Of a DNA stretch of 64,000 nt, positions 10,016-61,450 are shown piece by piece. Position numbers and translations under genes: made by a program. The stretch is from Candidatus Nomurabacteria bacterium. GTDB taxonomy: Bacteria; Patescibacteriota; Saccharimonadia; Saccharimonadales; VXPC01. The first letter of the stretch is position 1, and each line of letters starts with the position of its first letter. The stretch is taken from positions 613,854-677,853 of the forward strand of contig JACKGQ010000001.1 of the NCBI GenBank assembly GCA_020631905.1, in the 5' to 3' direction. The notes under the pieces are model-generated. The model made no database searches. It saw nothing but the letters and a program-made list of their open reading frames with translations, and had not been told where the DNA came from.

Positions 10016-11215
10016 ATGAAAATACTAATGCTTGGGTGGGAGCTACCACCCTATCATAGCGGTGGACTAGGCATCGCTTGCTACCAGTTGTGCAAGGGGC
10101 TTGCTAAAGCTGGCGTTGGTATTGAGTTTATTGTTCCTTACGAAGCCGAGCACAACATAGACTTCATGAAAGTTACATCTGCGACTAAAGTTGCTGTCGA
10201 AGAATTTGCACTAGCCCTTGGTGCATATACTACGGAGCGCTCTGCACAAATATCTCTTATGCCGATGAGTTTTCAGAATCTATTCGAACAGACGCAAAAT
10301 TACGCTCGAAGTATTGATCACGTAGTTAAAATGGCTGAGTTCGATGTAATCCATGCTCATGATTGGCTGACTGTTAGCGCAGCACTTCGCGCCAAGGCTA
10401 TTAGTGGCAAACCCTTGATTATGCATTATCACGCTACCGAGTTTGATCGTACTGCTGGTAGTAGAGGCAACGAAATGGTCCATGAAATTGAGCAAATGGG
10501 GCTCAGCATGGCAGACTTAGTAATTACTGTTAGTGAGTACACAAGACAGCTTGTCATTAATAATTACGGTGTTGACCCCGATAGAGTTAGAGTCGTTCAC
10601 AATCGAATCGATGCCGATATGTACGATCTCGCTGATCGCAAAAACAGTTACCCTGCTTTTGAGCAACTTAAAAAAAGTGGCTTCAAGGTGGTTTCTCATA
10701 TCGGTAGAATTACGATTCAGAAAGGTTTATGGAACCTTCTGCATGCTTTTGAGCAAGTTGTCGATAAACGTCCAAAAACACTCCTGTTAATGGCCGGTAA
10801 CGGAGAACAGATTCGAGAGTTACAGGTGTTGGCGGCCGATTTAGGGATAGCGCAAAATGTTTTTTTTACCAATAAGTTTGTTGGAGGAACAGATTGGTCG
10901 AGTGCGTTTAAACAAACTGATTTATTTTTATTACCAAGCGTAAGCGAGCCCTTTGGCTTAACACCTCTAGAAGCAGCTTTATTTGGAGTACCGAGTTTAG
11001 CCACACGCCAATGCGGGGTTACTGAAATATTCAAGAATTGCCTCAAAGTAGATTATTGGGACGAAAAAGAAATGGCTAACCAAATAGTTTCGGCACTTAA
11101 TTCCGATAGTTTGCTCGAAGTTTTAACTGCCAATGCCATGCTAGAAGTTAAACAACTTACATGGCACGCAGCAAGTGAACATTTTATTGATAGCTATGAG
11201 GCGGTTCTAGCATGA
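10016..11215 (+). CDS. GT4 glycosyltransferase (glycogen/alpha-glucan synthase-like)
   Basis: The N-terminus MKILMLGWELPPYHSGGLG and the C-terminal EPFGLTPLEAALFGVP (E-x7-E type) were seen in the translation. Confidence 0.85.
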   Translation: MKILMLGWELPPYHSGGLGIACYQLCKGLAKAGVGIEFIVPYEAEHNIDFMKVTSATKVAVEEFALALGAYTTERSAQISLMPMSFQNLFEQTQNYARSIDHVVKMAEFDVIHAHDWLTVSAALRAKAISGKPLIMHYHATEFDRTAGSRGNEMVHEIEQMGLSMADLVITVSEYTRQLVINNYGVDPDRVRVVHNRIDADMYDLADRKNSYPAFEQLKKSGFKVVSHIGRITIQKGLWNLLHAFEQVVDKRPKTLLLMAGNGEQIRELQVLAADLGIAQNVFFTNKFVGGTDWSSAFKQTDLFLLPSVSEPFGLTPLEAALFGVPSLATRQCGVTEIFKNCLKVDYWDEKEMANQIVSALNSDSLLEVLTANAMLEVKQLTWHAASEHFIDSYEAVLA

Positions 11216-12417
11216 GCAATATAGTCTTGTACTTGCATGCTCATCAGCCTTACAGAGTTAGACATTACACTATTTTTGACGCTGGTAAATCGAGTGACTA
11301 TTTTACCGCCCCTGTCGGATCCAGAGAGTCTAATCGCGATATTATTAACAAAGTCTCCGAAAAGTCATATCTACCAACCAATAAGGTCTTACTACACCTT
11401 CTGACCACTGTCCCAGAATTTAAACTAAGCCTTTCTATAACTGGCACGTTGCTAGAACAGCTTAGAGACCATCGACCAGATGTACTAGCCTCTTTTAAGG
11501 CTCTAGTTGATACTGGTAAAGTAGAAATAGTCGGTGAAACGTATTATCACTCTTTGGCATTTTTCCATGATCGTCAAGAATTCGAACGCCAAGTAGAGGC
11601 TCATTCTCAAATATGTGAAGAATTACTAAATTATAAGCCACATTCTTTTCGTAATACTGAGTTAGCCTATAATAACGAGCTAGGTAGCTGGTGCGATAGC
11701 AAGGGGTACGAAGCTGTAATAACCGAGGGCTGGGATCCAGTCTTAGGCTGGCGAAGCCCGAACCACATGTACCGTCCGCTAAATGCGACCAAGACAAAGC
11801 TATTGGTAAAAAATTATCACTTAAGCGATGATATTGCCTTTAGATTTGGTAATCAAACATGGTCTGAGTGGCCGATGAGCGCTGATAAGTTTACTTACTG
11901 GATTCACGAAGGTTCACCAGATGCAGATATCATTAACTTGTTTATGGATTTCGAAACGTTTGGTGAGCATCAGTGGCAAGAGAGTGGCATCTTTGATTTC
12001 TTAACACATCTTCCGTCTAAGTGGGGTCTAAAAGAAGGCTCTGGTTTTATGACAATCAGCGAAGCAGCCAGAACTTATGAGGCAAAAGACGAGCTTGATA
12101 TTCACAATACAATCACTTGGGCAGATACCGAACGAGATCTTACGGCTTGGCTAGGCAATACTATGCAGACTCAAGCTTTTGACGCAGTCTACGCTCTTGC
12201 TGAATCAGTATTAGCCTCGAACGATCAATCGATCATAGATGATTGGCGTAAACTTCAAACTAGCGATCACTTTTACTATATGTGCACAAAATACTTTAAT
12301 GATGGAGATGTACACGCCTACTTTAGTCCTTACGAATCGCCATACGTTGGCCAAATGAACTACATGAACGTGCTCCTGGATGTAAAAAATAGACTCTCGC
12401 AAAAGGGTTTATTATAG
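11212..12417 (+). CDS. glycoside hydrolase family 57 protein
   Basis: The N-terminus LYLHAHQPYRV and FMDFETFGEH are hallmarks of GH57. The start overlaps the GT4 stop. Confidence 0.85.
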   Translation: MSNIVLYLHAHQPYRVRHYTIFDAGKSSDYFTAPVGSRESNRDIINKVSEKSYLPTNKVLLHLLTTVPEFKLSLSITGTLLEQLRDHRPDVLASFKALVDTGKVEIVGETYYHSLAFFHDRQEFERQVEAHSQICEELLNYKPHSFRNTELAYNNELGSWCDSKGYEAVITEGWDPVLGWRSPNHMYRPLNATKTKLLVKNYHLSDDIAFRFGNQTWSEWPMSADKFTYWIHEGSPDADIINLFMDFETFGEHQWQESGIFDFLTHLPSKWGLKEGSGFMTISEAARTYEAKDELDIHNTITWADTERDLTAWLGNTMQTQAFDAVYALAESVLASNDQSIIDDWRKLQTSDHFYYMCTKYFNDGDVHAYFSPYESPYVGQMNYMNVLLDVKNRLSQKGLL

Positions 12418-12420
12418 TTC

Positions 12421-14349
12421 ATGGCCAGACCAGTTTGTTTATCAAATGGGTCATTGTTCATAGGCTTAAATAAATTTGGCTTAGTTGATGATATCTATTT
12501 TCCGTATGTTGGCCTAGAAAACCTTAAGACCTCTAGACTAATCCCTCATAAAATTGGTGTATTTGTTGATGATAAATTCAGCTGGCTAGATGATGGTACC
12601 TGGGAAGTGTCTTTGAAATATGAATACGGAACTATGGTTTCTGAAATCGTATTTTCTAACGAGAAGCTAAATCTCGAAATACAAGCCAACGACGCTGTAG
12701 ACTACGACGAAAATGCCTTCATGCGAAGCATAAAAGTAATCAATAAACTAAACCGTCGTCGTACAGTTAAGGTATTCTTGCATCAAGTATTCCAAATTAG
12801 TCGAAATGGCCGGGCCGATACAGCATTTTATGTACCTGATGGTAACTATATATTTGACTATAAAGGCCATACAGCAATTATTGTTTATAGCCATAACGAT
12901 GGTTTGGCATTCAACGAATTTGCTGTTGGTAATTATGCGATAGAAGGTAAAAGTGGAACTTTTAAAGATGCAGAAGATGGCGAGCTTTCTGGTAACTTAG
13001 TTGAGCACGGTGGGATTGATTCGGTAATAGCACACAGTTTAGACCTTGGTCCTCAGGAATGGCAAAAAATTGAGTATTGGCTAGCTTTTGGTGACACTCA
13101 GCAAGATGCGTACCGCGTGCACCAGCGCATATTGGACGATTCGCTCGAGGGTAGGCTTAATGCAACTCGAACAAATTGGCACCAGTGGTTAACTAAGGCT
13201 AGCGATAATTTACCTGTAAAACTTAGTCAGACAGAAAAAGAAAATGCCTTGAGTTCTTTACTGACCATTAAAGCCCATATAGATAAAAACGGTGGGATAA
13301 TTGCCAGCGGAGATAGTAGTCTCTACAACTATGGTCGTGACTATTACGCATATTGTTGGCCTAGAGATGGAGCGTATTCTTTGTGGCCTTTGATTAAGTT
13401 AGGTTATTTCGAAGAAGCGCGTAAGTTTTTTGATTTCTTTGCCCAAGTCATGCATCCAGACGGTTATTTACAACATAAATATCAAACCGACGGTGCTTTC
13501 GGAAGTACTTGGCATCCACAGGTTCAGGAACATCATAAAGAGCTCGCTATTCAAGAAGATGAAACAGCCATAATACTATTAATGATTGCCGAATATGATA
13601 TGTACAGCCAAGACGCAGACTATTTTATGCAGACGTTCAATCGATTCGTCAGGCCGTGTGCAGAATTTTTAGCAAATTATATCGATAGCGTCACGCATCT
13701 TCCCCACCCCAGCTATGATTTATGGGAGCAAAAATTCCTTTCAACAACCTATACTTCTTATCTCGTGTCTGCTGCCTTGCGTCGTATTGCTGAAGTAACA
13801 GAAAGATATTACCAAGATGAGGCGACATCACGTTGGCTAGAAGCATCGGCTATTATCGAGAAGAATTTGGACAAATATTATGATCGTGACTTAGGCTATT
13901 ACATAAAAGGCTTTAAAATACAGGAGAACGGAGAATATCTCTACGATAAAACACTTGATGCCAGTAGCATATATCCATTATTCACATTTTCTAAACAGTT
14001 GGAAAATCAATCACATTTAACAAAGTCTGCCGACGCTATAGAGCGCCAGTTAATGAACGGTTCGCTTACTGGTGTTGCAAGGTATACTGATGATGATTAT
14101 TTACGTAACAACCCAAAAGACTCCGGAAATCCATGGTTCATTTGCACATTTTGGTATGTGCAATACCTTGCCAAAACTGGACATATAGAGAGAGCCGAGA
14201 AATTACTGGAGTGGACTAGTCAACGTTTCGGTGCGAATGGGATGATTAGTGAACAAATCGACCCGAAAACATCCAAACAACTAGGCGTTGGTCCACTAAT
14301 ATGGAGCCACGCTGAGTATATAAACTGTTTGATCTTACTACGTAATTGA
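12421..14349 (+). CDS. glycoside hydrolase family 15 (glucoamylase/glucodextranase-like)
   Basis: It contains YAYCWPRDGAY and a C-terminal (alpha/alpha)6-type region (WFICTFWY, GMISEQID). Confidence 0.85.
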   Translation: MARPVCLSNGSLFIGLNKFGLVDDIYFPYVGLENLKTSRLIPHKIGVFVDDKFSWLDDGTWEVSLKYEYGTMVSEIVFSNEKLNLEIQANDAVDYDENAFMRSIKVINKLNRRRTVKVFLHQVFQISRNGRADTAFYVPDGNYIFDYKGHTAIIVYSHNDGLAFNEFAVGNYAIEGKSGTFKDAEDGELSGNLVEHGGIDSVIAHSLDLGPQEWQKIEYWLAFGDTQQDAYRVHQRILDDSLEGRLNATRTNWHQWLTKASDNLPVKLSQTEKENALSSLLTIKAHIDKNGGIIASGDSSLYNYGRDYYAYCWPRDGAYSLWPLIKLGYFEEARKFFDFFAQVMHPDGYLQHKYQTDGAFGSTWHPQVQEHHKELAIQEDETAIILLMIAEYDMYSQDADYFMQTFNRFVRPCAEFLANYIDSVTHLPHPSYDLWEQKFLSTTYTSYLVSAALRRIAEVTERYYQDEATSRWLEASAIIEKNLDKYYDRDLGYYIKGFKIQENGEYLYDKTLDASSIYPLFTFSKQLENQSHLTKSADAIERQLMNGSLTGVARYTDDDYLRNNPKDSGNPWFICTFWYVQYLAKTGHIERAEKLLEWTSQRFGANGMISEQIDPKTSKQLGVGPLIWSHAEYINCLILLRN

Positions 14350-50871: not shown

Positions 50872-51489
50872 TTAACGGCTTGCGATAACCGTGTCGACGA
50901 TACCGTATTCTTTGGCTTCGACTGCTGTAAGAAAGCGATCTCGATCCCAATCTTTTTGAATCTGTTTAATCGGTTTACCGGTGTGTTTGCTCATAATTTC
51001 GGCAAGTGTATTTTTAATCTTCAGGCCTTCTTCCAGACCGATTTCCATATCGGAGATTTTACCTGTAGCACCACCACTAGGCTGGTGGATCATTACTTTG
51101 GCGTTTGGCAAGGCATGGCGCTTGCCTTTGGCTCCCGCGGCCAGTAGCACCGAACCCATGCTCATAGCCATTCCAATACCGTAGGTTTGAACATCTGGTT
51201 TGATAAATTGCATGGTGTCATATATAGCCAGTCCGGCATAAACCATTCCGCCAGGACTATTTATATAGAAGTGGATGTCTTTATCTGGATCCTGCTGCTC
51301 TAAGAACAGCATTTGCGCCACAATTATGTTTGCCGTATGCATGTTTACCTGATCGCCTAAAAATATAATCCGGTCTTTTAATAGCCGAGAGTAGATATCG
51401 TATGCACGCTCAAACCGACCGTCTTGTTCAATTACAGTTGGTATCAACACATTAGAAATAGGTGTTTGCGTAGTAGCTTGTAAATCCAT
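50872..51489 (-). CDS. clpP: ATP-dependent Clp protease proteolytic subunit
   Basis: It contains RIIFLG..V.....[16 protein letters not shown] (catalytic Ser) and IHQP. Confidence 0.97.
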
Positions 51490-53033: not shown

Positions 53034-53669
53034 CTAACAGAGTGAACGATAGTAGTCAAAACCATCTAGTTCGATTTCTATCGCAGTCGCCCATGCTCTT
53101 AGAGCCTGCTTGCCAACTTTACCTATACCATAGATATCAAATGGTTGGGTTACAAAATCCACAAACGACTGCGGGTTTAAGCCGATCGGTGTTTCTACCA
53201 AAGTTCTTGCACCCCTGCTATCTCTGCTAGCCTTAAAAACAGCCGCAAGGTGCAGCGGGCAGCCACACGACCAATCGGCATATTTAGCGCCAGCATGAGT
53301 CCCGTAAAAGTTTTGCTCGAGCCCGTTTTCTACCGACCAGGCATGGTTAAAAGTCGCATGGCCAATCAGTGCATTTACTGCATGAGTCAGGATTCGACTC
53401 GCCGACGAGGGAATAATAGCACCTCTACCGAGTGTACATAAATATGGCACCAACGAACTCGAGACATAGGCTACAAGCCGGTTGTCTCGGTCATCATGGG
53501 CTAGCTCGAAGAATGTCGGATTTAATCCGGATTGGCCAAGCAGCCTAAACCGTGCAGCTCTGGCAACTCCACTAAGCTCAGTTGCAGCTGCCCGCGCTTC
53601 GGCAAGCGAGGCACGCCCAAGCGATTCTCCTTCGATTACATATCTTAAAGACTGATGATATTCGGCCAT
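53034..53669 (-). CDS. orphan hypothetical protein between hisS and tig
   Basis: The 211-aa ORF stops 12 nt upstream of the tig ATG and is Ala/Arg-rich. No motif recognised. Confidence 0.6.
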   Translation of the reverse strand: MAEYHQSLRYVIEGESLGRASLAEARAAATELSGVARAARFRLLGQSGLNPTFFELAHDDRDNRLVAYVSSSLVPYLCTLGRGAIIPSSASRILTHAVNALIGHATFNHAWSVENGLEQNFYGTHAGAKYADWSCGCPLHLAAVFKASRDSRGARTLVETPIGLNPQSFVDFVTQPFDIYGIGKVGKQALRAWATAIEIELDGFDYYRSLC

Positions 53670-55026: not shown

Positions 55027-55614
55027 CTAATCATTCTCCTTATTTATGCGTACTTGTGCAAGTTTAACAGCTTGAGCTACAGCTTGACGAGCACTTTTTA
55101 CTGCCCTGAATCTATATCTCTTTCTTGCATCTAGATACTTTCCAGACAGATTGGCTGACCATCCTGGAAATTGATCTATTACTACAACTGGGATACCTGC
55201 TTGATATGCCACACATATTTCGTTTAACGTACCAGAACCACCAGCTATTGCGATTATCGAATCGCAAGACAAACTCTGTACCATCTCCCGCCCCCCTCCA
55301 CGTACTAAGCCCGTTGCTATCACTACACTCGCAGACTCAGGTTTAAATATTTCCAAGCCTATATCATATGTGACACCAATGGTTAAACCGTTATTCTTTC
55401 TGGCAGATAGCGCTGCCTCCGTGGAAAGCGAAAGCGAATCTTTTTCTGCTCCAAACACTAAAGTACAATTGGTGTATGCAAGGTTTTTACCAATACTTCT
55501 TGCTATTTGAATTGATCGTTGGCTGTAGTTAAGATCACTGCAAGACCCTATTACTCCAATTTGCAAATTTCTCATATACATCTCCATTAAATTTTTAATG
55601 TTATTTATAAACAA
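55027..55614 (-). CDS. LOG/TIGR00725-family Rossmann-fold protein (lysine-decarboxylase-like)
   Basis: It contains IGVIGS..., GG..G.M and IAIAGGSGTLNEI motifs. Confidence 0.75.
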   Translation of the reverse strand: MFINNIKNLMEMYMRNLQIGVIGSCSDLNYSQRSIQIARSIGKNLAYTNCTLVFGAEKDSLSLSTEAALSARKNNGLTIGVTYDIGLEIFKPESASVVIATGLVRGGGREMVQSLSCDSIIAIAGGSGTLNEICVAYQAGIPVVVIDQFPGWSANLSGKYLDARKRYRFRAVKSARQAVAQAVKLAQVRINKEND

Positions 55615-55801
55615 AAAGCCGGGTGCTAGCCCCGGAATGATGAGTTATTCAGATATTAGAAACTACCTACCACTTACGAGGCTAACAACCGGCTGAATAT
55701 GTAGATGTAGTTTGATCACTATCTTCTTATTATAGCATGCTTTGCCTAGTAATGTCAAGCTTATGCTTGCTCTTTATGGGTTTTGATGGTTAAATCTTGG
55801 C

Positions 55802-55872
55802 AACTTTGGAGGCAAAAGTCTCTGGAGAAGTACATCCTGTCCTAAATCAGACCTAGCTCCCGAGGAGGAGTC
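55802..55872 (+). promoter_or_regulatory. conserved 5' leader, copy 1 (Clp-N cassette)
   Basis: The sequence AACTTTGGAGGCAAAAGTCTCTGGAGAAGTACATCCTGTC...CTAGCTCCCGAGGAGGAGTC-ATG is nearly identical to 56748-56818. It contains GGAGG / CTCC / GGAGGAG (Shine-Dalgarno) elements. Confidence 0.7.
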
Positions 55873-56565
55873 ATGTTCGATCGTTTTACGCAAGAAGCCA
55901 AGAATGCGGTAATTCTGGCGCAAGAAGAAGCCCGCCTGCATGGCCACACTTATCTTGGCACCGAGCATCTGCTACTGGGGATTCTGCACCAGAACAACAG
56001 CATGGCCGTTACAGCCCTCGAGTGTCTTGGGCTAACATTGGAGCCTGTCCGCCAGCAAGCGCTCGAGATTCTCGGTGTTGGTAGCACATCCCCAAACGTG
56101 CTTCCGTTTACGCCGCGGGCAAGGAAGGTGCTCGAGCTGGCCTACCGTGAGTCGGAACAACTTGGTTCGAATTATATTGGCCCTGAGCACTTGTTGCTCG
56201 GCATTCTGCGCGAAGGAGAAGGCATCGCTTGCCAGACGATTGTGGCGCTCGGCGTCGATCTCGAACATGTCGAGCGCACTGTGATGGGTTCGATCGAAGC
56301 TGCGGATGCCGACACCAAACTCGTTGACGCTGTAAGTAGAACGGTCTATCAGATGTTCCATCGGCACGTCGCAAAGATTGCCAACGCACCACGACTGGAG
56401 GTCGTACCGGTAGTAGTCGTCATCGAGCCAGGTGAGCAGTCGTCGCATAGCGCGACCATCTTGCCGGTTGAACCCGACGTCGAGCAAGTTCTCTTGGCAG
56501 CGCTCGAACGCAGTGACAAAGCCTGCATCACGCTCGCCGATCTCCGCATGGTTCTCGGTAATTAA
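55873..56565 (+). CDS. stand-alone Clp N-terminal (Clp_R repeat) domain protein, no AAA+ module
   Basis: The sequences MFDRFTQEAKNAVILAQEEARLHGHTYLGTEHLLLGIL...LPFTPRARKVLELAYRESEQLGSNYIGPEHLLLGILREGEG form two Clp_N repeats. There is no Walker A motif. A hand-counted sample gives ~62% GC. Confidence 0.9.
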   Translation: MFDRFTQEAKNAVILAQEEARLHGHTYLGTEHLLLGILHQNNSMAVTALECLGLTLEPVRQQALEILGVGSTSPNVLPFTPRARKVLELAYRESEQLGSNYIGPEHLLLGILREGEGIACQTIVALGVDLEHVERTVMGSIEAADADTKLVDAVSRTVYQMFHRHVAKIANAPRLEVVPVVVVIEPGEQSSHSATILPVEPDVEQVLLAALERSDKACITLADLRMVLGN

Positions 56566-56574
56566 CGACTAGAC

Positions 56575-56675
56575 GACAGGATGTAAATCTAGACGCTTCT
56601 CGAGGCACCACCAAGCCTTTCGAGACCGTCATAACCCGCTGAGGAAACTCAGCGGGTCTGTCATTTTAGGCAGAT
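56575..56675 (+). repeat. conserved structured 3' tail, copy 1
   Basis: This 101-nt element matches 57616-57716 at 100 of 101 positions. The closing stem is GACAG/CTGTC, with hairpins TCTCGAGG...CTTTCGAGA and ACCCGCTGAG-gaaa-CTCAGCGGGT. Confidence 0.9.
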
Positions 56676-56747
56676 CTCTAAGTGCCAAGTAACTTACATC
56701 CATTTCATGTCTTTGTTGCAGACTACATATTGTGTTATAGTATAGGT

Positions 56748-56818
56748 AACTTTGGAGGCAAAAGTCTCTAGAGAAGTACATCCTGTCAAAATAGACACCT
56801 AGCTCCCGAGGAGGAGTC
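56748..56818 (+). promoter_or_regulatory. conserved 5' leader, copy 2 (Clp-N cassette)
   Basis: It matches 55802-55872 except for one G/A change and an 11-nt variable patch. It is preceded by TTGTTG-17-TATAGT with TG (extended -10). Confidence 0.7.
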
Positions 56819-57616
56819 ATGTTCGAACGTTTTACCGACCGAGCTCGTCGTGCTGTCGTTGACGCTCAAGAAGAGGCACGACTGCTCAACCACTCGTACA
56901 TCGGCACCGAACACCTGCTGATTGGGCTGACATACAACTCATATGCGGATGAAGGTGGTCTTTCTCAGCAAATCATGGCAGCCCTCGGGGCCGACGTTGA
57001 GACACTGAGGGAACAAGCACGCGAAGTATTCGTAAACGACACCCAAGTTAGGGCTGGCTCGCATATCCCGTTTACACCGCGGGCCAAGAAGGTGCTCGAA
57101 CTGTCGCTCCGCGATGCCCTCCAGCTTGGGCACAACTACATCGGCACCGAACACTTGCTGTTGGCGTTGGCGCGTGAAGGCGGTGGCGGAGCTGCCAAAA
57201 TCATGGAGAACCTTGGCATCGACTTCAGGTACGGCTTCATCAAACAAGTTGTCATTTACATGTTGAACCAAAAAACCAGCGCTCGGGTGGCGGTTGCTCA
57301 TGCTGTGAGCGAGAAGATGCAACCAACGCTCACGCCTAGCCAAGCCGCCGAGGTCGACGCAATGGTCGACCGGCTCATGCCCCAGCTCGTCGCTCAGACT
57401 GTTGCCGGACAAGAATCAGTGACAAGTGATGGCAAGCTCGCACGTCTGGTGCTGACGACAATCCAAGACAGCCGTCCTGGAATGATTCGAGTCGAGCCGG
57501 CAGTGCTGGAACTGGTGTTAAGAGCTGTCGAACTCAACCCGAATACAGCCAGCGTTACGACTGGCCAACTGATGGCGATTCTTCAGTCGCCGGAGGCACC
57601 GGGGCTGCAGAAATAG
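56819..57616 (+). CDS. stand-alone ClpC1-like N-terminal domain protein with unique C-terminal extension
   Basis: The sequences MFERFTDRARRAVVDAQEEARLLNHSYIGTEHLLIGL...IPFTPRAKKVLELSLRDALQLGHNYIGTEHLLLALAREGGG are very close, from memory, to the actinobacterial ClpC1 NTD. There is no AAA+ module. Confidence 0.92.
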   Translation: MFERFTDRARRAVVDAQEEARLLNHSYIGTEHLLIGLTYNSYADEGGLSQQIMAALGADVETLREQAREVFVNDTQVRAGSHIPFTPRAKKVLELSLRDALQLGHNYIGTEHLLLALAREGGGGAAKIMENLGIDFRYGFIKQVVIYMLNQKTSARVAVAHAVSEKMQPTLTPSQAAEVDAMVDRLMPQLVAQTVAGQESVTSDGKLARLVLTTIQDSRPGMIRVEPAVLELVLRAVELNPNTASVTTGQLMAILQSPEAPGLQK

Positions 57617-57716
57617 ACAGGATGTAAATCTAGACGCTTCTCGAGGCACCACCAAGCCTTTCGAGACCGTCATAACCCGCTGAGGAAACTCAGCGGGTCT
57701 GTCATTTCAGGCAGAT
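57616..57716 (+). repeat. conserved structured 3' tail, copy 2
   Basis: See copy 1. This copy starts at the G of the stop codon TAG. Confidence 0.9.
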
Positions 57717-57724
57717 TTTGTTTG

Positions 57725-58405
57725 TTAGCTGTGAACGTAGACTAAGCCTAACTCCAGACGGCTCAAGACGGAGGCTGTGACTGCTTGTGTATGATTACGC
57801 TCGCTTAATCTACCAAGCCTAGCTAGATAGGCATATTCAAGCGAATAAATGTCTAGCTCGCTCCTAAGTGCCGATTGGGCTACAATTCTTAGCAGTCGAA
57901 GGCCGGCACGTAGTGTCGAGTGCGAGTCGTATCTCTCGTTAAAGTACATCAAGTCGGCGATAACTTTAGACACATCGATGTATTCGGGATGTTTTGGCTC
58001 GATACGTGTCGAAACCCAGTAATCCTCGACAAGCTGGCGAAGCGTGGTCGTGTCGAAAATCTTAGGGTATGTGCTTGGCATAGCGTCTGTAGCCGACTCA
58101 TCACTGACCATCTCTGTCTCTACTTCGTCGACTATAGGTGGTGTTGGAAAATTAAGACCAGAATCAAGAATTAGTGCCAAGCCGTTATACACCAAGTCTG
58201 GAACAGCTTCTAAAGCGACACGCTCGCGAGCCTCTTCTTGAGCAGCCAGGTTGTTGGCATGGCCTAAAGCCTCGTCGTAGGCCGCAAACTTGCCGACTAT
58301 TTTACCTAGATGGGTGGCAATGTGTACTCTCGGACTATGTGTTTCGGCGTCACGTAAATCGTTTACTCCCAAAAATGCTTTTTGAATTCTGGCCAGTTCG
58401 ACCAT
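57725..58405 (-). CDS. hypothetical protein (helical; function unknown)
   Basis: The ORF is 226 aa from the ATG at 58405, which has a GAGGTGA Shine-Dalgarno. The track's start at 58480 adds a hydrophobic, unlikely extension. Confidence 0.6.
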   Translation of the reverse strand: MVELARIQKAFLGVNDLRDAETHSPRVHIATHLGKIVGKFAAYDEALGHANNLAAQEEARERVALEAVPDLVYNGLALILDSGLNFPTPPIVDEVETEMVSDESATDAMPSTYPKIFDTTTLRQLVEDYWVSTRIEPKHPEYIDVSKVIADLMYFNERYDSHSTLRAGLRLLRIVAQSALRSELDIYSLEYAYLARLGRLSERNHTQAVTASVLSRLELGLVYVHS

Positions 58406-58516
58406 TGTGTACTCACCTCGAAATGACTGTAGTCTTATCATGCAAAAATTATAGGCATAAATAAAACCGACCACAAGCACAAGGGTTATGGTCGGCTAAA
58501 ATTCTTTTTTTGTTTA

Positions 58517-59873: not shown

Positions 59874-60734
59874 ATGACTCACCAAAAGAATTCTGAATCC
59901 CGCGCACTATACGCGCTCATGGTGGTCCTCTTGGTCTGCGTACTCATCTTGGGGCTTATTTCCGCCTTCGGCAGTCCTTGGAGTCAAGCTCAGCCAGCTG
60001 ACGACTATACGTCGTCCGAGTTGTACTCGTTGCAGGTTCAGCAGATCGCCGATCTCAAACAGCAGGTCGAAGACATGCAGCAGCAGATCTCCGAACTCCA
60101 GACCGAGCTCGATAGTACGGCGGTGGGCGTCTTCGACACGCCACCCAGTGACACAGTGGTCACCGCAACCACTATCGACCTCGACGCGGCTTCGCGCGAG
60201 GCATGCATCCACTACCGTGATGATCCGTTCTTTTTGGCCGACTTTTCCGAGGGCTTCGTCTTCGGAGGCGCCGAGTGCACCCCTGGCCACTTCTGGGGCG
60301 TGCTTTGGCCGGCCAACGACACCTATGTCATCACCACGCCCGAAGGGCTTAACTTCGACGATGGGTTTGCCAGTGTCGGGTTCGACGACAACTGGTACGG
60401 CATACCCGCCAGCCTGCGTCATCCGGCCTATGCAGACGCACTAACCCTGGAAGAGCTGACTCAGCTCCCACCAGGGACAATCATCTGCCGACGGACTGGC
60501 AACAACCCCGAACATGCCACAGAGCATGTCTTCTTCGAGGCAAGTCTAGTGGTCTACGAATACGACGGGTCACTTTATCCTCGCTGGACAGACAGTCAGG
60601 GTATGGCCTCGAGCTTGAGCTCGTGGAGCCTCGAAGATGACGGGGTGATCCCATACAGCAACTACACCGATACCGAATGGTACGGCGGCTGGAGTGGGAC
60701 TCGTCTGACACTGGGAAGGTGTAACGCGGTGTAA
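59874..60734 (+). CDS. hypothetical membrane-anchored protein, high GC (likely foreign origin)
   Basis: The 286-aa ORF has an N-terminal TM helix, a Gln-rich coiled coil (QVQQIADLKQQVEDMQQQISELQTELD) and a Trp/Gly/Asp-rich C-terminal domain. A hand-counted sample gives ~67% GC. Two hairpins follow (60741-60769 and 60766-60810). Confidence 0.7.
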   Translation: MTHQKNSESRALYALMVVLLVCVLILGLISAFGSPWSQAQPADDYTSSELYSLQVQQIADLKQQVEDMQQQISELQTELDSTAVGVFDTPPSDTVVTATTIDLDAASREACIHYRDDPFFLADFSEGFVFGGAECTPGHFWGVLWPANDTYVITTPEGLNFDDGFASVGFDDNWYGIPASLRHPAYADALTLEELTQLPPGTIICRRTGNNPEHATEHVFFEASLVVYEYDGSLYPRWTDSQGMASSLSSWSLEDDGVIPYSNYTDTEWYGGWSGTRLTLGRCNAV

Positions 60735-60997: not shown

Positions 60998-61082
60998 GCG
61001 GATGTGGTGGAATTGGTAGACACGCTAGCCTTAGGAGCTAGTGCCGCAAGGCGTGAAGGTTCAAGTCCTTTCATCCGCACCA
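60998..61082 (+). tRNA. tRNA-Leu (anticodon TAG)
   Basis: This is a type II tRNA. The acceptor is GCGGATG/CATCCGC, the anticodon arm is CTAGC-CTTAGGA-GCTAG, the variable arm is long, the T-loop is TTCAAGT and CCA is encoded. Confidence 0.93.
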
Positions 61083-61245
61083 AACTTATGACCGGCTATA
61101 TGCCGGTTTTAAGTTTGATTAGGGTTAAAGATTTGATGAAAACCCTAAGCCGCGAAGGTTAGAAATGCCTGTGGGATTTCGCAAGAGAACCTTTCAGGTT
61201 CAAACTTGTTTGATGCATGAAAGTTCTGGGCCCGCAGAATGTGGG

Positions 61246-61259
61246 CAAGTCCTTTCATC
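61246..61259 (+). pseudogene. 14-nt remnant identical to the T-arm/acceptor 3' part of tRNA-Leu(TAG)
   Basis: caagtcctttcatc repeats 61062-61075. The surrounding sequence (gtgggCAAGTCCTTTCATCatcatca) looks like a decayed tRNA 3' end. Confidence 0.45.
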
Positions 61260-61364
61260 ATCATCAACTTGAACACCAGTTGATAAAACTTGATATTGAT
61301 TTGGCTTTAGTCAAAAAAAATCTAAAGTTCACAATATGTCACACCGGTAGTATATTTAGAGAAT

Positions 61365-61450
61365 GCGGATGTGGCGAAATGGCAGACGCGCTAGCTTCAG
61401 GTGCTAGTGTACGCAAGTACGTGGAGGTTCAAGTCCTCTCATCCGCACCA
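61365..61450 (+). tRNA. tRNA-Leu (anticodon CAG)
   Basis: It has the same acceptor, GCGGATG/CATCCGC. The anticodon arm is CTAGC-TTCAGGT-GCTAG, the variable arm is long and CCA is encoded. Confidence 0.93.

Follow-up and report, generated by a model that had tools for sequence, protein, structure and literature searches.

Mycobacteria depend on ClpC1 for viability, and several natural cyclic peptides target this protein. The actinobacterial protein (M. tuberculosis Rv3596c; PDB 3WDC, 6CN8, 8IBO) combines an N-terminal domain (NTD), which consists of a double Clp_N repeat with an MFERF start, with a linker and a motor containing D1/D2 AAA+ modules, an M-domain and a ClpP-binding loop. Motor-less copies of this receptor domain are already known to blunt ClpC1-targeting cyclic peptides. 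In mycobacterial ClpC2 (Rv2667), a ClpC1-like ligand-binding domain lies C-terminally, behind a four-helix dimerisation/DNA-binding domain. Investigations on ClpC2 revealed nanomolar binding of cyclomarin and rufomycin, a sponge function and autorepression that is released by phospho-arginine and by the drug cyclomarin A (PMC10030653, PMC13345244). This domain of ClpC2 shares ~40% identity with ClpC1; it has a single phospho-arginine site, and a Leu to Phe change in it blocks ecumicin (PMC13345244). Stand-alone copies with the receptor domain at the N-terminus are encoded by actinophages and by a plasmid of Tsukamurella tyrosinosolvens, and the plant proteins ClpT1 and ClpT2, restricted to plastids, are motor-less double Clp_N proteins that act on a Clp protease. 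The present analysis concerns two adjacent genes, ORF1 and ORF2, in a stretch of 64,000 nucleotides (hereafter the window; contig JACKGQ010000001.1, positions 613,854 to 677,853) from a bacterium of the Candidate Phyla Radiation (CPR). With stand-alone ClpC1-NTD genes already known from ClpC2, actinophages and plasmids, the locus would add a pair in a CPR bacterium. What is new here is the arrangement, so far unexplained, of near-identical flanks around divergent coding sequences (CDSs).

The two open reading frames (ORFs), both of which are annotated as "hypothetical protein" at NCBI, are the following.
55873-56565 (+): ORF1, 230 aa (KDA23_04755), with a head at about aa 1-140 and a tail of about 90 aa.
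56819-57616 (+): ORF2, 265 aa (KDA23_04760), with a head at about aa 1-150 and a predicted helical tail of about 115 aa.

Clp_N (PF02861) is the sole Pfam family in either protein, with two repeats per ORF (E-values 1.6e-28 and 6.4e-26; family cutoff 20.7 bits), and both ORFs therefore belong to the double-repeat Clp_N proteins, as the structural model of ORF2 described below also indicates. NCBIfam gave sub-threshold N-terminal matches only, to ClpB, ClpA, ClpK and ClpG. A profile built from 65 full-length actinobacterial ClpC1 proteins aligns with ORF1 at positions 1-144 only and with ORF2 at positions 1-160 only. Neither ORF has the D1/D2, M-domain and ClpP-binding loop of a full-length ClpC1/ClpC class I AAA+ unfoldase, and the Walker A pattern G-x4-G-K-[ST] is absent from both sequences. 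A six-frame scan of the whole window with the ClpC1 profile revealed no AAA+ remnant, no further ClpC1-profile match and no other Clp/Hsp100 or AAA+ unfoldase. The original prediction of two adjacent genes of 230 and 265 aa, each with a complete double Clp_N repeat and no AAA+ module, and of no ClpC/ClpX-type unfoldase near clpP, is borne out by these results. Each ORF has its own GGAGGAG Shine-Dalgarno sequence, native N-terminus (MFERF or MFDRF), stop codon and terminator-like hairpin. As these signals are complete and no AAA+ remnant was found in the window, ORF1 and ORF2 are stand-alone genes and not pieces of a clpC gene broken at this locus, an outcome that the prediction had named as fatal to itself.

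In PDB sequence searches, the best match of both ORFs was the M. tuberculosis ClpC1 NTD (E 1e-45 to 1e-47), followed by Arabidopsis ClpC1 (1e-34 to 1e-37), Bacillus ClpC (1e-31 to 1e-34) and the C-terminal domains of ClpC2 (8ad9, 9p2p, 8b9o; 1e-18 to 1e-22). A common alignment with the N-domains of 65 Actinomycetota ClpC1 proteins gave identities of 52-59% for ORF1 and 57-64% for ORF2; the identities to B. subtilis ClpC are 39% and 41%, respectively, and the two heads share 43% (47% over 139 aa by BLASTP). The motifs that the prediction had quoted as common to ORF2 and M. tuberculosis ClpC1 are present in the alignment as written, and the closeness to the actinobacterial NTD that it had claimed holds. 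An AlphaFold2 (AF2) model of ORF2 based on 48 aligned sequences reached a predicted local distance difference test score (pLDDT) of 85-97 for most of the N-domain and 68-70 in two loop blocks, and Foldseek placed it on the M. tuberculosis ClpC1 NTD with a template modelling (TM) score of 0.93 and a root-mean-square deviation of 1.6 Å; a model made with no alignment had a pLDDT of 46. In ~66% of columns, the B. subtilis domain agrees with the ClpC1 consensus; since identities multiply along a path (0.6 x 0.66 ~0.40), the ORFs would attach at or near the ClpC1 node of the path between ClpC1 and Bacillus ClpC. ORF1 and ORF2 are of the ClpC1 type, not the ClpC2 or Firmicute type, and would form two long, nearly independent branches at or very near the ClpC1 node. 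The first repeat of ORF2 also has four residues, NSYA, that are inserted relative to ClpC1, and two further inserted residues in the last head helix (around residues 136-141) give rise to the sequence R-Y-G-F-I. Its YGF is similar to the (L/I/V)-G-F tripeptide by which Clp unfoldases dock to ClpP; this likeness is probably a coincidence, because the residues lie inside a predicted helix.

Regarding the ligand sites, 13 residues at binding or resistance positions of ClpC1 for cyclomarin, rufomycin/ilamycin, ecumicin and lassomycin were checked (M1, F2, F5, V13, Q17, R21, H77, P79, F80, L88, E89, L92 and L96). Most of this list has been compiled in PMC12350849, the F2/F80/E89 contacts are described in PMC10030653, and the cyclic-peptide pocket has been termed ClpC1-specific (PMC9240326). 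All 13 residues are kept in ORF2, and 10 are kept in ORF1, which carries H77V, L92Y and L96E relative to M. tuberculosis ClpC1; B. subtilis ClpC differs at eight positions (V13L, R21L, H77T, P79H, F80Y, L88I, L92M and L96R). Of the putative phospho-arginine sites, which we take to be built on the GTEH motifs and on the helix starts at T6 and T81, ORF2 has both GTEH motifs, T6 and T81. In ORF1 the first GTEH motif is kept and the second is GPEH (T105P, outside the list of 13), giving four changes among 18 checked positions. ORF2 thus looks competent for the full ligand set of the ClpC1 NTD, and ORF1 for a narrower or different set. Because the pocket of ORF2 is complete and ORF1 is changed at four of 18 positions, the pair probably differs in ligand range. 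In the pocket inspection that had been proposed along with the prediction, ORF2 accordingly shows the cyclic-peptide pocket intact.

The composition of the pair is foreign to its surroundings. The CDS guanine-plus-cytosine (GC) content is 56.0% in ORF1 and 56.3% in ORF2 (59% in the highest 200-nt window), and GC at third codon positions (GC3) is 0.61 and 0.62, with heads and tails alike (0.60-0.63). The other 45 genes of the window have a GC of 42.9 +/- 3.2% and a GC3 of 0.368 +/- 0.046, placing the GC3 of the pair more than 5 standard deviations (SD) away and far from the native composition that would have spoken against the original prediction. Of its figures of ~62% GC against ~43% in core genes, the second is right and the first is overstated; 62% corresponds to GC3 and not to overall GC, because only GC3 reaches 61-62%. 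As the pair stands at 56% GC and 61-62% GC3 against 43% and 37% in the other window genes, the data support a foreign origin. A genome search covering one genome for each of 185,579 species yielded 596 confirmed relatives of ORF2, and the best 80 of these were all Actinomycetota ClpC1 with 50-58% identity. Near the top of a search of 5.8 billion proteins, the single-domain matches with a named organism were fragments of Actinomycetota ClpC1 (60-62%). In clusters at 90% identity, ORF2 is alone, and the only companion of ORF1 is a fragment of 139 aa that comes from a second assembly of this organism. The usual hallmarks of horizontal acquisition are all found at this locus: the composition is atypical, the nearest relatives belong to another phylum and ORF1 is linked to native genes. 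The source is most likely an actinobacterial lineage.

The divergence of ORF1 and ORF2 goes well beyond that of every orthologous ClpC1 N-domain in the sample: the 65 Actinomycetota N-domains are mutually 85-100% identical, and the ORFs reach at most 62-64% to them. Because those domains are so alike and GC3 is still strongly foreign, most of the divergence from ClpC1 would be older than the transfer, and the donor gene would have been an already divergent stand-alone paralogue; the alternative is very fast evolution after transfer. Since the tails share the foreign GC3 of the heads, the donor gene, in an Actinomycetota genome, phage or plasmid, was probably already a stand-alone "head plus tail". 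Taken together, ORF1 and ORF2 are best explained as intact, horizontally acquired, stand-alone copies of the actinobacterial-type ClpC1 substrate/adaptor-receptor domain, each with a short tail.

The region 55802-57716 singled out by the original prediction coincides with a repeated pair of non-coding flanks, which the prediction left undescribed. The elements of the two units are as follows.
55799-55872 (+): 5' flank copy 1, a putative 5' untranslated region (UTR) with 51% GC, a hairpin (CUUUGGAGGC/GUCUCUGGAG) and the Shine-Dalgarno sequence GGAGGAG.
55826-55841 (+): inverted-repeat arm AGAAGTACATCCTGTC in 5' flank copy 1.
56575-56675 (+): 3' flank copy 1, a putative 3' UTR with an internal hairpin.
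56575-56590 (+): inverted-repeat arm GACAGGATGTAAATCT at the start of 3' flank copy 1.
56634-56657 (+): terminator-like hairpin ACCCGCTGAG-GAAA-CTCAGCGGGT in 3' flank copy 1.
56676-56744 (+): AT-rich spacer between the two units, 33% GC and non-repeated according to the identity profile.
56745-56818 (+): 5' flank copy 2, a putative 5' UTR.
57616-57716 (+): 3' flank copy 2, a putative 3' UTR with a terminator-like hairpin at 57675-57698.

The 91-nt repeat 55799-55889 versus 56745-56835, which comprises 74 nt before the ATG and the first 17 nt of the CDS, is 90% identical, and the 101-nt repeat after the stop codons (56575-56675 versus 57616-57716) is 99% identical. The CDSs between the flanks are only 54% identical at the nucleotide level, with four-fold degenerate sites near saturation (11 of 25 identical versus 26% expected by chance), and the repeat boundaries are sharp. 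One arm of a 16-nt inverted repeat lies in the 5' flank and the other where the 3' flank starts, so that the repeat brackets each CDS. The RNA fold of 57610-57725 has a free energy of -49.7 kcal/mol (z = -6.5 versus shuffles) and ends in the terminator-like hairpin; a predicted duplex between the 5' and 3' flanks, of ~-40 kcal/mol, is a weak signal, 16 to 49 of 500 shuffles being as good. The repeats seem to start near a transcription start set by weak promoter-like hexamers, which were seen by eye and fall under the scan threshold. The spacer presumably carries the promoter of ORF2, and its candidate, TTGTTG-17-TATAGT, is likewise by eye and below that threshold. The conserved unit therefore looks like the transcript minus its coding part. 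Each flank motif was found exactly twice, at these two genes and nowhere else in the window, and had 0 matches in public genome, metagenome (two scans) and viral contig collections; Rfam showed no family in the flank/gene region. The conservation of the flanks may stem from gene conversion that is limited to the UTRs, from a strong constraint on regulation or from exchange of divergent alleles via the flanks. An inverton or cassette, an idea suggested by the 16-nt inverted repeats, is unsupported, as no recombinase was found nearby.

Among the described relatives, the actinophage proteins (PHROG 35667; Mycobacterium phage Myrna gp251 and Phabba, 235 aa) have the same order of head and tail as the ORFs and are encoded by parasites of Actinobacteria. 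Their tails are 50-110 aa long in proteins of 199-240 aa in total, and at least three of 37 IMG/VR contigs encoding a relative show this head-plus-tail organisation (L087, L090 and L095; 199-240 aa). The phage heads are nearer to host ClpC1 (77-83% for Myrna) than the ORF heads are, and the phage tails have no significant similarity to ORF1 or ORF2: the PHROG 35667 profile matches the ORFs at positions 11-157 of 235 (E 1.5e-43 and 1.2e-46) with its tail part unmatched, and the tail alignment to L090 is weak. The Tsukamurella plasmid protein (WP_068742849, 284 aa; Mycobacteriales) is also a stand-alone head with an unrelated tail on mobile DNA. It is 51-58% identical to ClpC1, a distance similar to that of the ORFs; in contrast, it shares only 41% with ORF1 and ORF2, its first TEH motif is degenerate and its tail is different. 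The phage and plasmid relatives appear to be the same kind of gene.

The most likely function of the pair, proposed here tentatively on the strength of the sequence, is to compete with the ClpC1 receptor domain, to serve as its decoy or to mimic it. Because the AAA+ motor is absent, the proteins can only bind and would not unfold or deliver substrates. They would bind the ligands of the ClpC1 head, namely phospho-arginine-tagged proteins, adaptors and head-targeting cyclic peptides, and these ligands would be titrated away from real ClpC1 by the non-catalytic ORF proteins. The most likely setting would be interference with, or protection from, the ClpC1 network of an actinobacterial partner, because actinophages carry the same gene type and the carrier is labelled as a member of the Saccharibacteria, an episymbiont lineage for which life on Actinobacteria has been described (e.g., PMC10031880). 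If so, the locus would offer a molecular entry point to the ways in which an episymbiont manipulates its host or protects itself against it, and would add natural ClpC1-NTD variants for the study of ligand specificity. The cases from a reduced-genome CPR bacterium, actinophages and a plasmid suggest that elements living on Actinobacteria have repeatedly resorted to mimicry of the ClpC1 head; coming from a single organism and lacking orthologues, the pair is a lead for now, not a principle.

Several points weigh against a decoy acquired from Actinobacteria. The decoy or host-interference function is purely what we infer. Neither a signal peptide nor a secretion signal was identified in ORF1 or ORF2, which leaves delivery to a host unsupported. 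The genes read are those of the window, and a ClpC of the organism's own, at which a self-protective decoy would be aimed, an arginine kinase or a secretion system may lie elsewhere. The best identity is only 62-64%, so that the acquisition from a high-GC Actinobacterium proposed originally stands only as regards the foreign GC3 and the Actinomycetota relatives. Both proteins are singletons among 5.8 billion proteins, with no orthologues across which selection could be read. Finally, the taxonomic label is ambiguous, which makes the actinobacterial host ambiguous as well. A bolder version, which we regard as rather unlikely, is host-directed mimicry, in which an episymbiotic CPR bacterium would deliver decoy ClpC1 receptors into its host and block or redirect phospho-arginine- or adaptor-dependent proteolysis, the divergent "alleles" being exchangeable through their near-identical, transcribed flanks. 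Such mimicry would have converged on the actinophage strategy, and the ligands of host ClpC1 would have shaped the cassette arrangement in an arms race.

A role closer to that of ClpC2 has to be weighed against the decoy. In this alternative, the head would sense phospho-arginine or a cyclic peptide, the tail would oligomerise or bind nucleic acid, and the genes would be autoregulated via their flanks. ClpC2 is a precedent for a decoy/sensor role in a motor-less protein with a ClpC1-NTD-like ligand-binding domain, and its release as an autorepressor by cyclomarin A and phospho-arginine, the near-identical flanks with their 16-nt inverted-repeat arms common to both genes and the predicted helical tails would all suit such a regulator. 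However, the architecture of mycobacterial ClpC2 is not that of ORF1 and ORF2: the domain order is reversed, with the head at the N-terminus and nothing before it, and there is no homology to the N-terminal dimerisation domain of ClpC2. The ORFs also match ClpC1 far better than ClpC2 (PDB matches of 1e-45 for ClpC1 versus 1e-18 to 1e-22 for ClpC2) and are nearer to ClpC1 than the ClpC2 domain is, ORF2 keeps L92 and L96, and the tails are unrelated to ClpC2. Searches of Pfam, NCBIfam and representative proteins revealed no DNA-binding family in the tails, and the AF2 model of the ORF2 tail, with ~5 helices, is of low confidence (pLDDT 51-71), Foldseek matching the head only. We consider a ClpC2-like sensor unlikely.

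The tails themselves are orphans and stand where ClpC1 has its linker and motor. A homologue search of 1.84 billion representative proteins with the ORF2 tail (aa 140-265) returned only itself, and full-length searches with the ORFs gave no match extending over either tail. The tails share no homology with each other by BLASTP, and hhalign could align only 32 columns at the C-terminal ends, weakly (E 0.06), which is a hint only; the different C-terminal extensions noted originally are real in this sense. A by-eye likeness of the tails to a degenerate D1 small domain of ClpC1 ("VEPxVE...IT") was rejected, since a ClpC1 hidden Markov model at E<=100, hhalign and the other reading frames were all empty.

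An accessory role in the Clp system of the bacterium itself, as a trans-acting receptor or ClpT-like regulator for ClpP and an unfoldase encoded elsewhere, is quite unlikely. The genes around the pair are the following.
55027-55614 (-): SLOG/LOG-family gene, the left neighbour of ORF1, divergent.
57725-58480 (-): gene without known identity, the right neighbour of ORF2, convergent.
50872-51489 (opposite strand to ORF1 and ORF2): clpP, ~5 kb upstream.

The proximity of clpP and the matches of ORF1 to plant ClpT1 and ClpT2 (E 2e-7 and 1e-6), regulators of ClpP assembly, are in line with such a role. On the other hand, the pair is compositionally foreign, lies on the opposite strand to clpP and shares no operon with it, and the window holds no partner unfoldase. 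The ClpT match is forty orders of magnitude weaker than the ClpC1 match; these regulators of the ClpP core in chloroplasts are very distant relatives, and for ORF2 no ClpT match was obtained at E <= 0.001 in the PDB sequence search.

Transfer debris, that is, captured 5' fragments of clpC1 decaying without function, is about as improbable. The singleton status, long branches and orphan tails are what debris might show, and several conserved ligand residues are lost in ORF1. Against decay, the frames are open for 230 and 265 codons and equipped with strong Shine-Dalgarno sequences, terminators and conserved UTRs, no downstream clpC1 sequence exists in any frame of the window, and the genome in which the genes have been kept is represented by one assembled contig of just 770 kb. 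The distribution of changes points the same way. In comparison with the 65 ClpC1 N-domains, ORF1 retains 66% and ORF2 73% of the ClpC1-invariant columns, and the consensus is matched at only 22-26% of variable columns; because of this difference, the pattern is the one expected for purifying selection on the fold and would not fit decay.

A vertical origin from CPR ClpC, with ORF1 and ORF2 as inherited paralogues and no transfer, is very unlikely. The phylogeny that had been recommended as a check was run as a neighbour-joining (NJ) tree with bootstraps. Dominated by long branches that attract each other, it gives no firm placement of the ORFs, which do not fall inside crown Actinomycetota. 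This would allow a vertical origin, as would the sampling, since the comparison set held no CPR ClpC sequences. Opposed to it are the GC3 of the pair, so distant from native genes, and the failure of any CPR protein to appear among the top matches of the 5.8-billion-protein searches with either ORF or among the best 80 of the 596 genome loci.

The weakest alternative, an assembly or binning artefact in which actinobacterial DNA was misjoined to a CPR contig, might draw on the high-GC genes within a low-GC genome and on the different locus-tag prefixes (KDA23 and KC878) of island and core proteins in the short-read metagenome-assembled genome (MAG) versions, but it is extremely improbable, because Logan contigs of SRR12358676 and SRR12358675 independently join ORF1 to the native SLOG, hisS, tig and clpP genes and to the unassigned gene between tig and hisS. 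ORF2 and the downstream genes lie on separate short contigs that start and stop exactly within the repeated flanks, as expected, because a de Bruijn assembler would break at repeats. In addition, the spacers between the genes share the AT-rich composition of the recipient genome. A GC3 of 0.61 is well under that of typical high-GC Actinobacteria, which also counts against contaminating DNA.

The same DNA carries different labels at NCBI: the KDA23_* and KC878_* MAGs are named "Candidatus Saccharibacteria bacterium", and the H6798_* version (the 770,081-bp contig) is named "Candidatus Nomurabacteria bacterium". EF-Tu, EF-G, L2 and ClpP of this organism are each alone in their clusters at 90% identity, and the lineage is therefore without a close sequenced relative. 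A 509-nt scaffold of another data set (ENA ERZ28655670, scaffold_409869; SAMN08389238; L086) is 100% identical to the ORF1 region 55842-56252 over 411 nt and continues into unrelated high-GC sequence, resulting in a 139-aa "protein". It was considered as a variant ORF1 junction and is most likely a chimeric short-read contig; it shows that the organism occurs in another data set.

Some further features of the surroundings deserve mention. In the divergent intergenic region common to ORF1 and the SLOG/LOG-family gene 55027-55614, a promoter that fits the sigma-70 consensus perfectly (12/12; TTGACA and a TG-extended TATAAT with an 18-nt spacer) faces the latter gene at 55729-55758 (-). A third compositionally foreign ORF of 286 aa (59874-60734, +; GC 57.6%, GC3 0.70) is located 2.2 kb downstream of ORF2, with a transmembrane helix at its N-terminus and a stretch rich in Q/E that resembles a coiled coil. 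It is annotated with 286 aa in one NCBI assembly (KDA23_04775) and with 144 aa in the other (H6798_03535). Examined as a clue to the donor, it matched no Pfam, NCBIfam or PADLOC family and had no homologue in the 5.8-billion-protein search, and it is without the flank motifs of the Clp_N genes. A prophage, a defence island or integration at a tRNA gene was considered for 55.8-60.8 kb and set aside: no phage or defence families were detected there, and no tRNA-derived direct repeat was found near 55.7 kb. At the right edge of the atypical region, 60998-61450 carries one tRNA-Leu gene with the anticodon TAG and another with CAG, 367 nt apart, with a weak third copy of a tRNA 3'-end (64% identical) midway at 61236-61268 (spacing 184 nt). 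As the left edge of the region showed no corresponding tRNA fragment, nothing points to integration targeted at a tRNA gene.

Between tig and hisS, an orphan ORF of 211 aa (53034-53669, -) has a slightly raised GC (49.5%) and a GC2, the corresponding value at second codon positions, of 0.49; it has no match among the families of Pfam, NCBIfam, PHROGs and PADLOC, and its protein cluster contains no other member. Elsewhere in the window, an alpha-glucan cluster at 10016-14349 (+) encodes a GT4/GT5 starch-synthase-like glycosyltransferase, a GH57 enzyme and a GH15 glucoamylase/glucodextranase-like enzyme.

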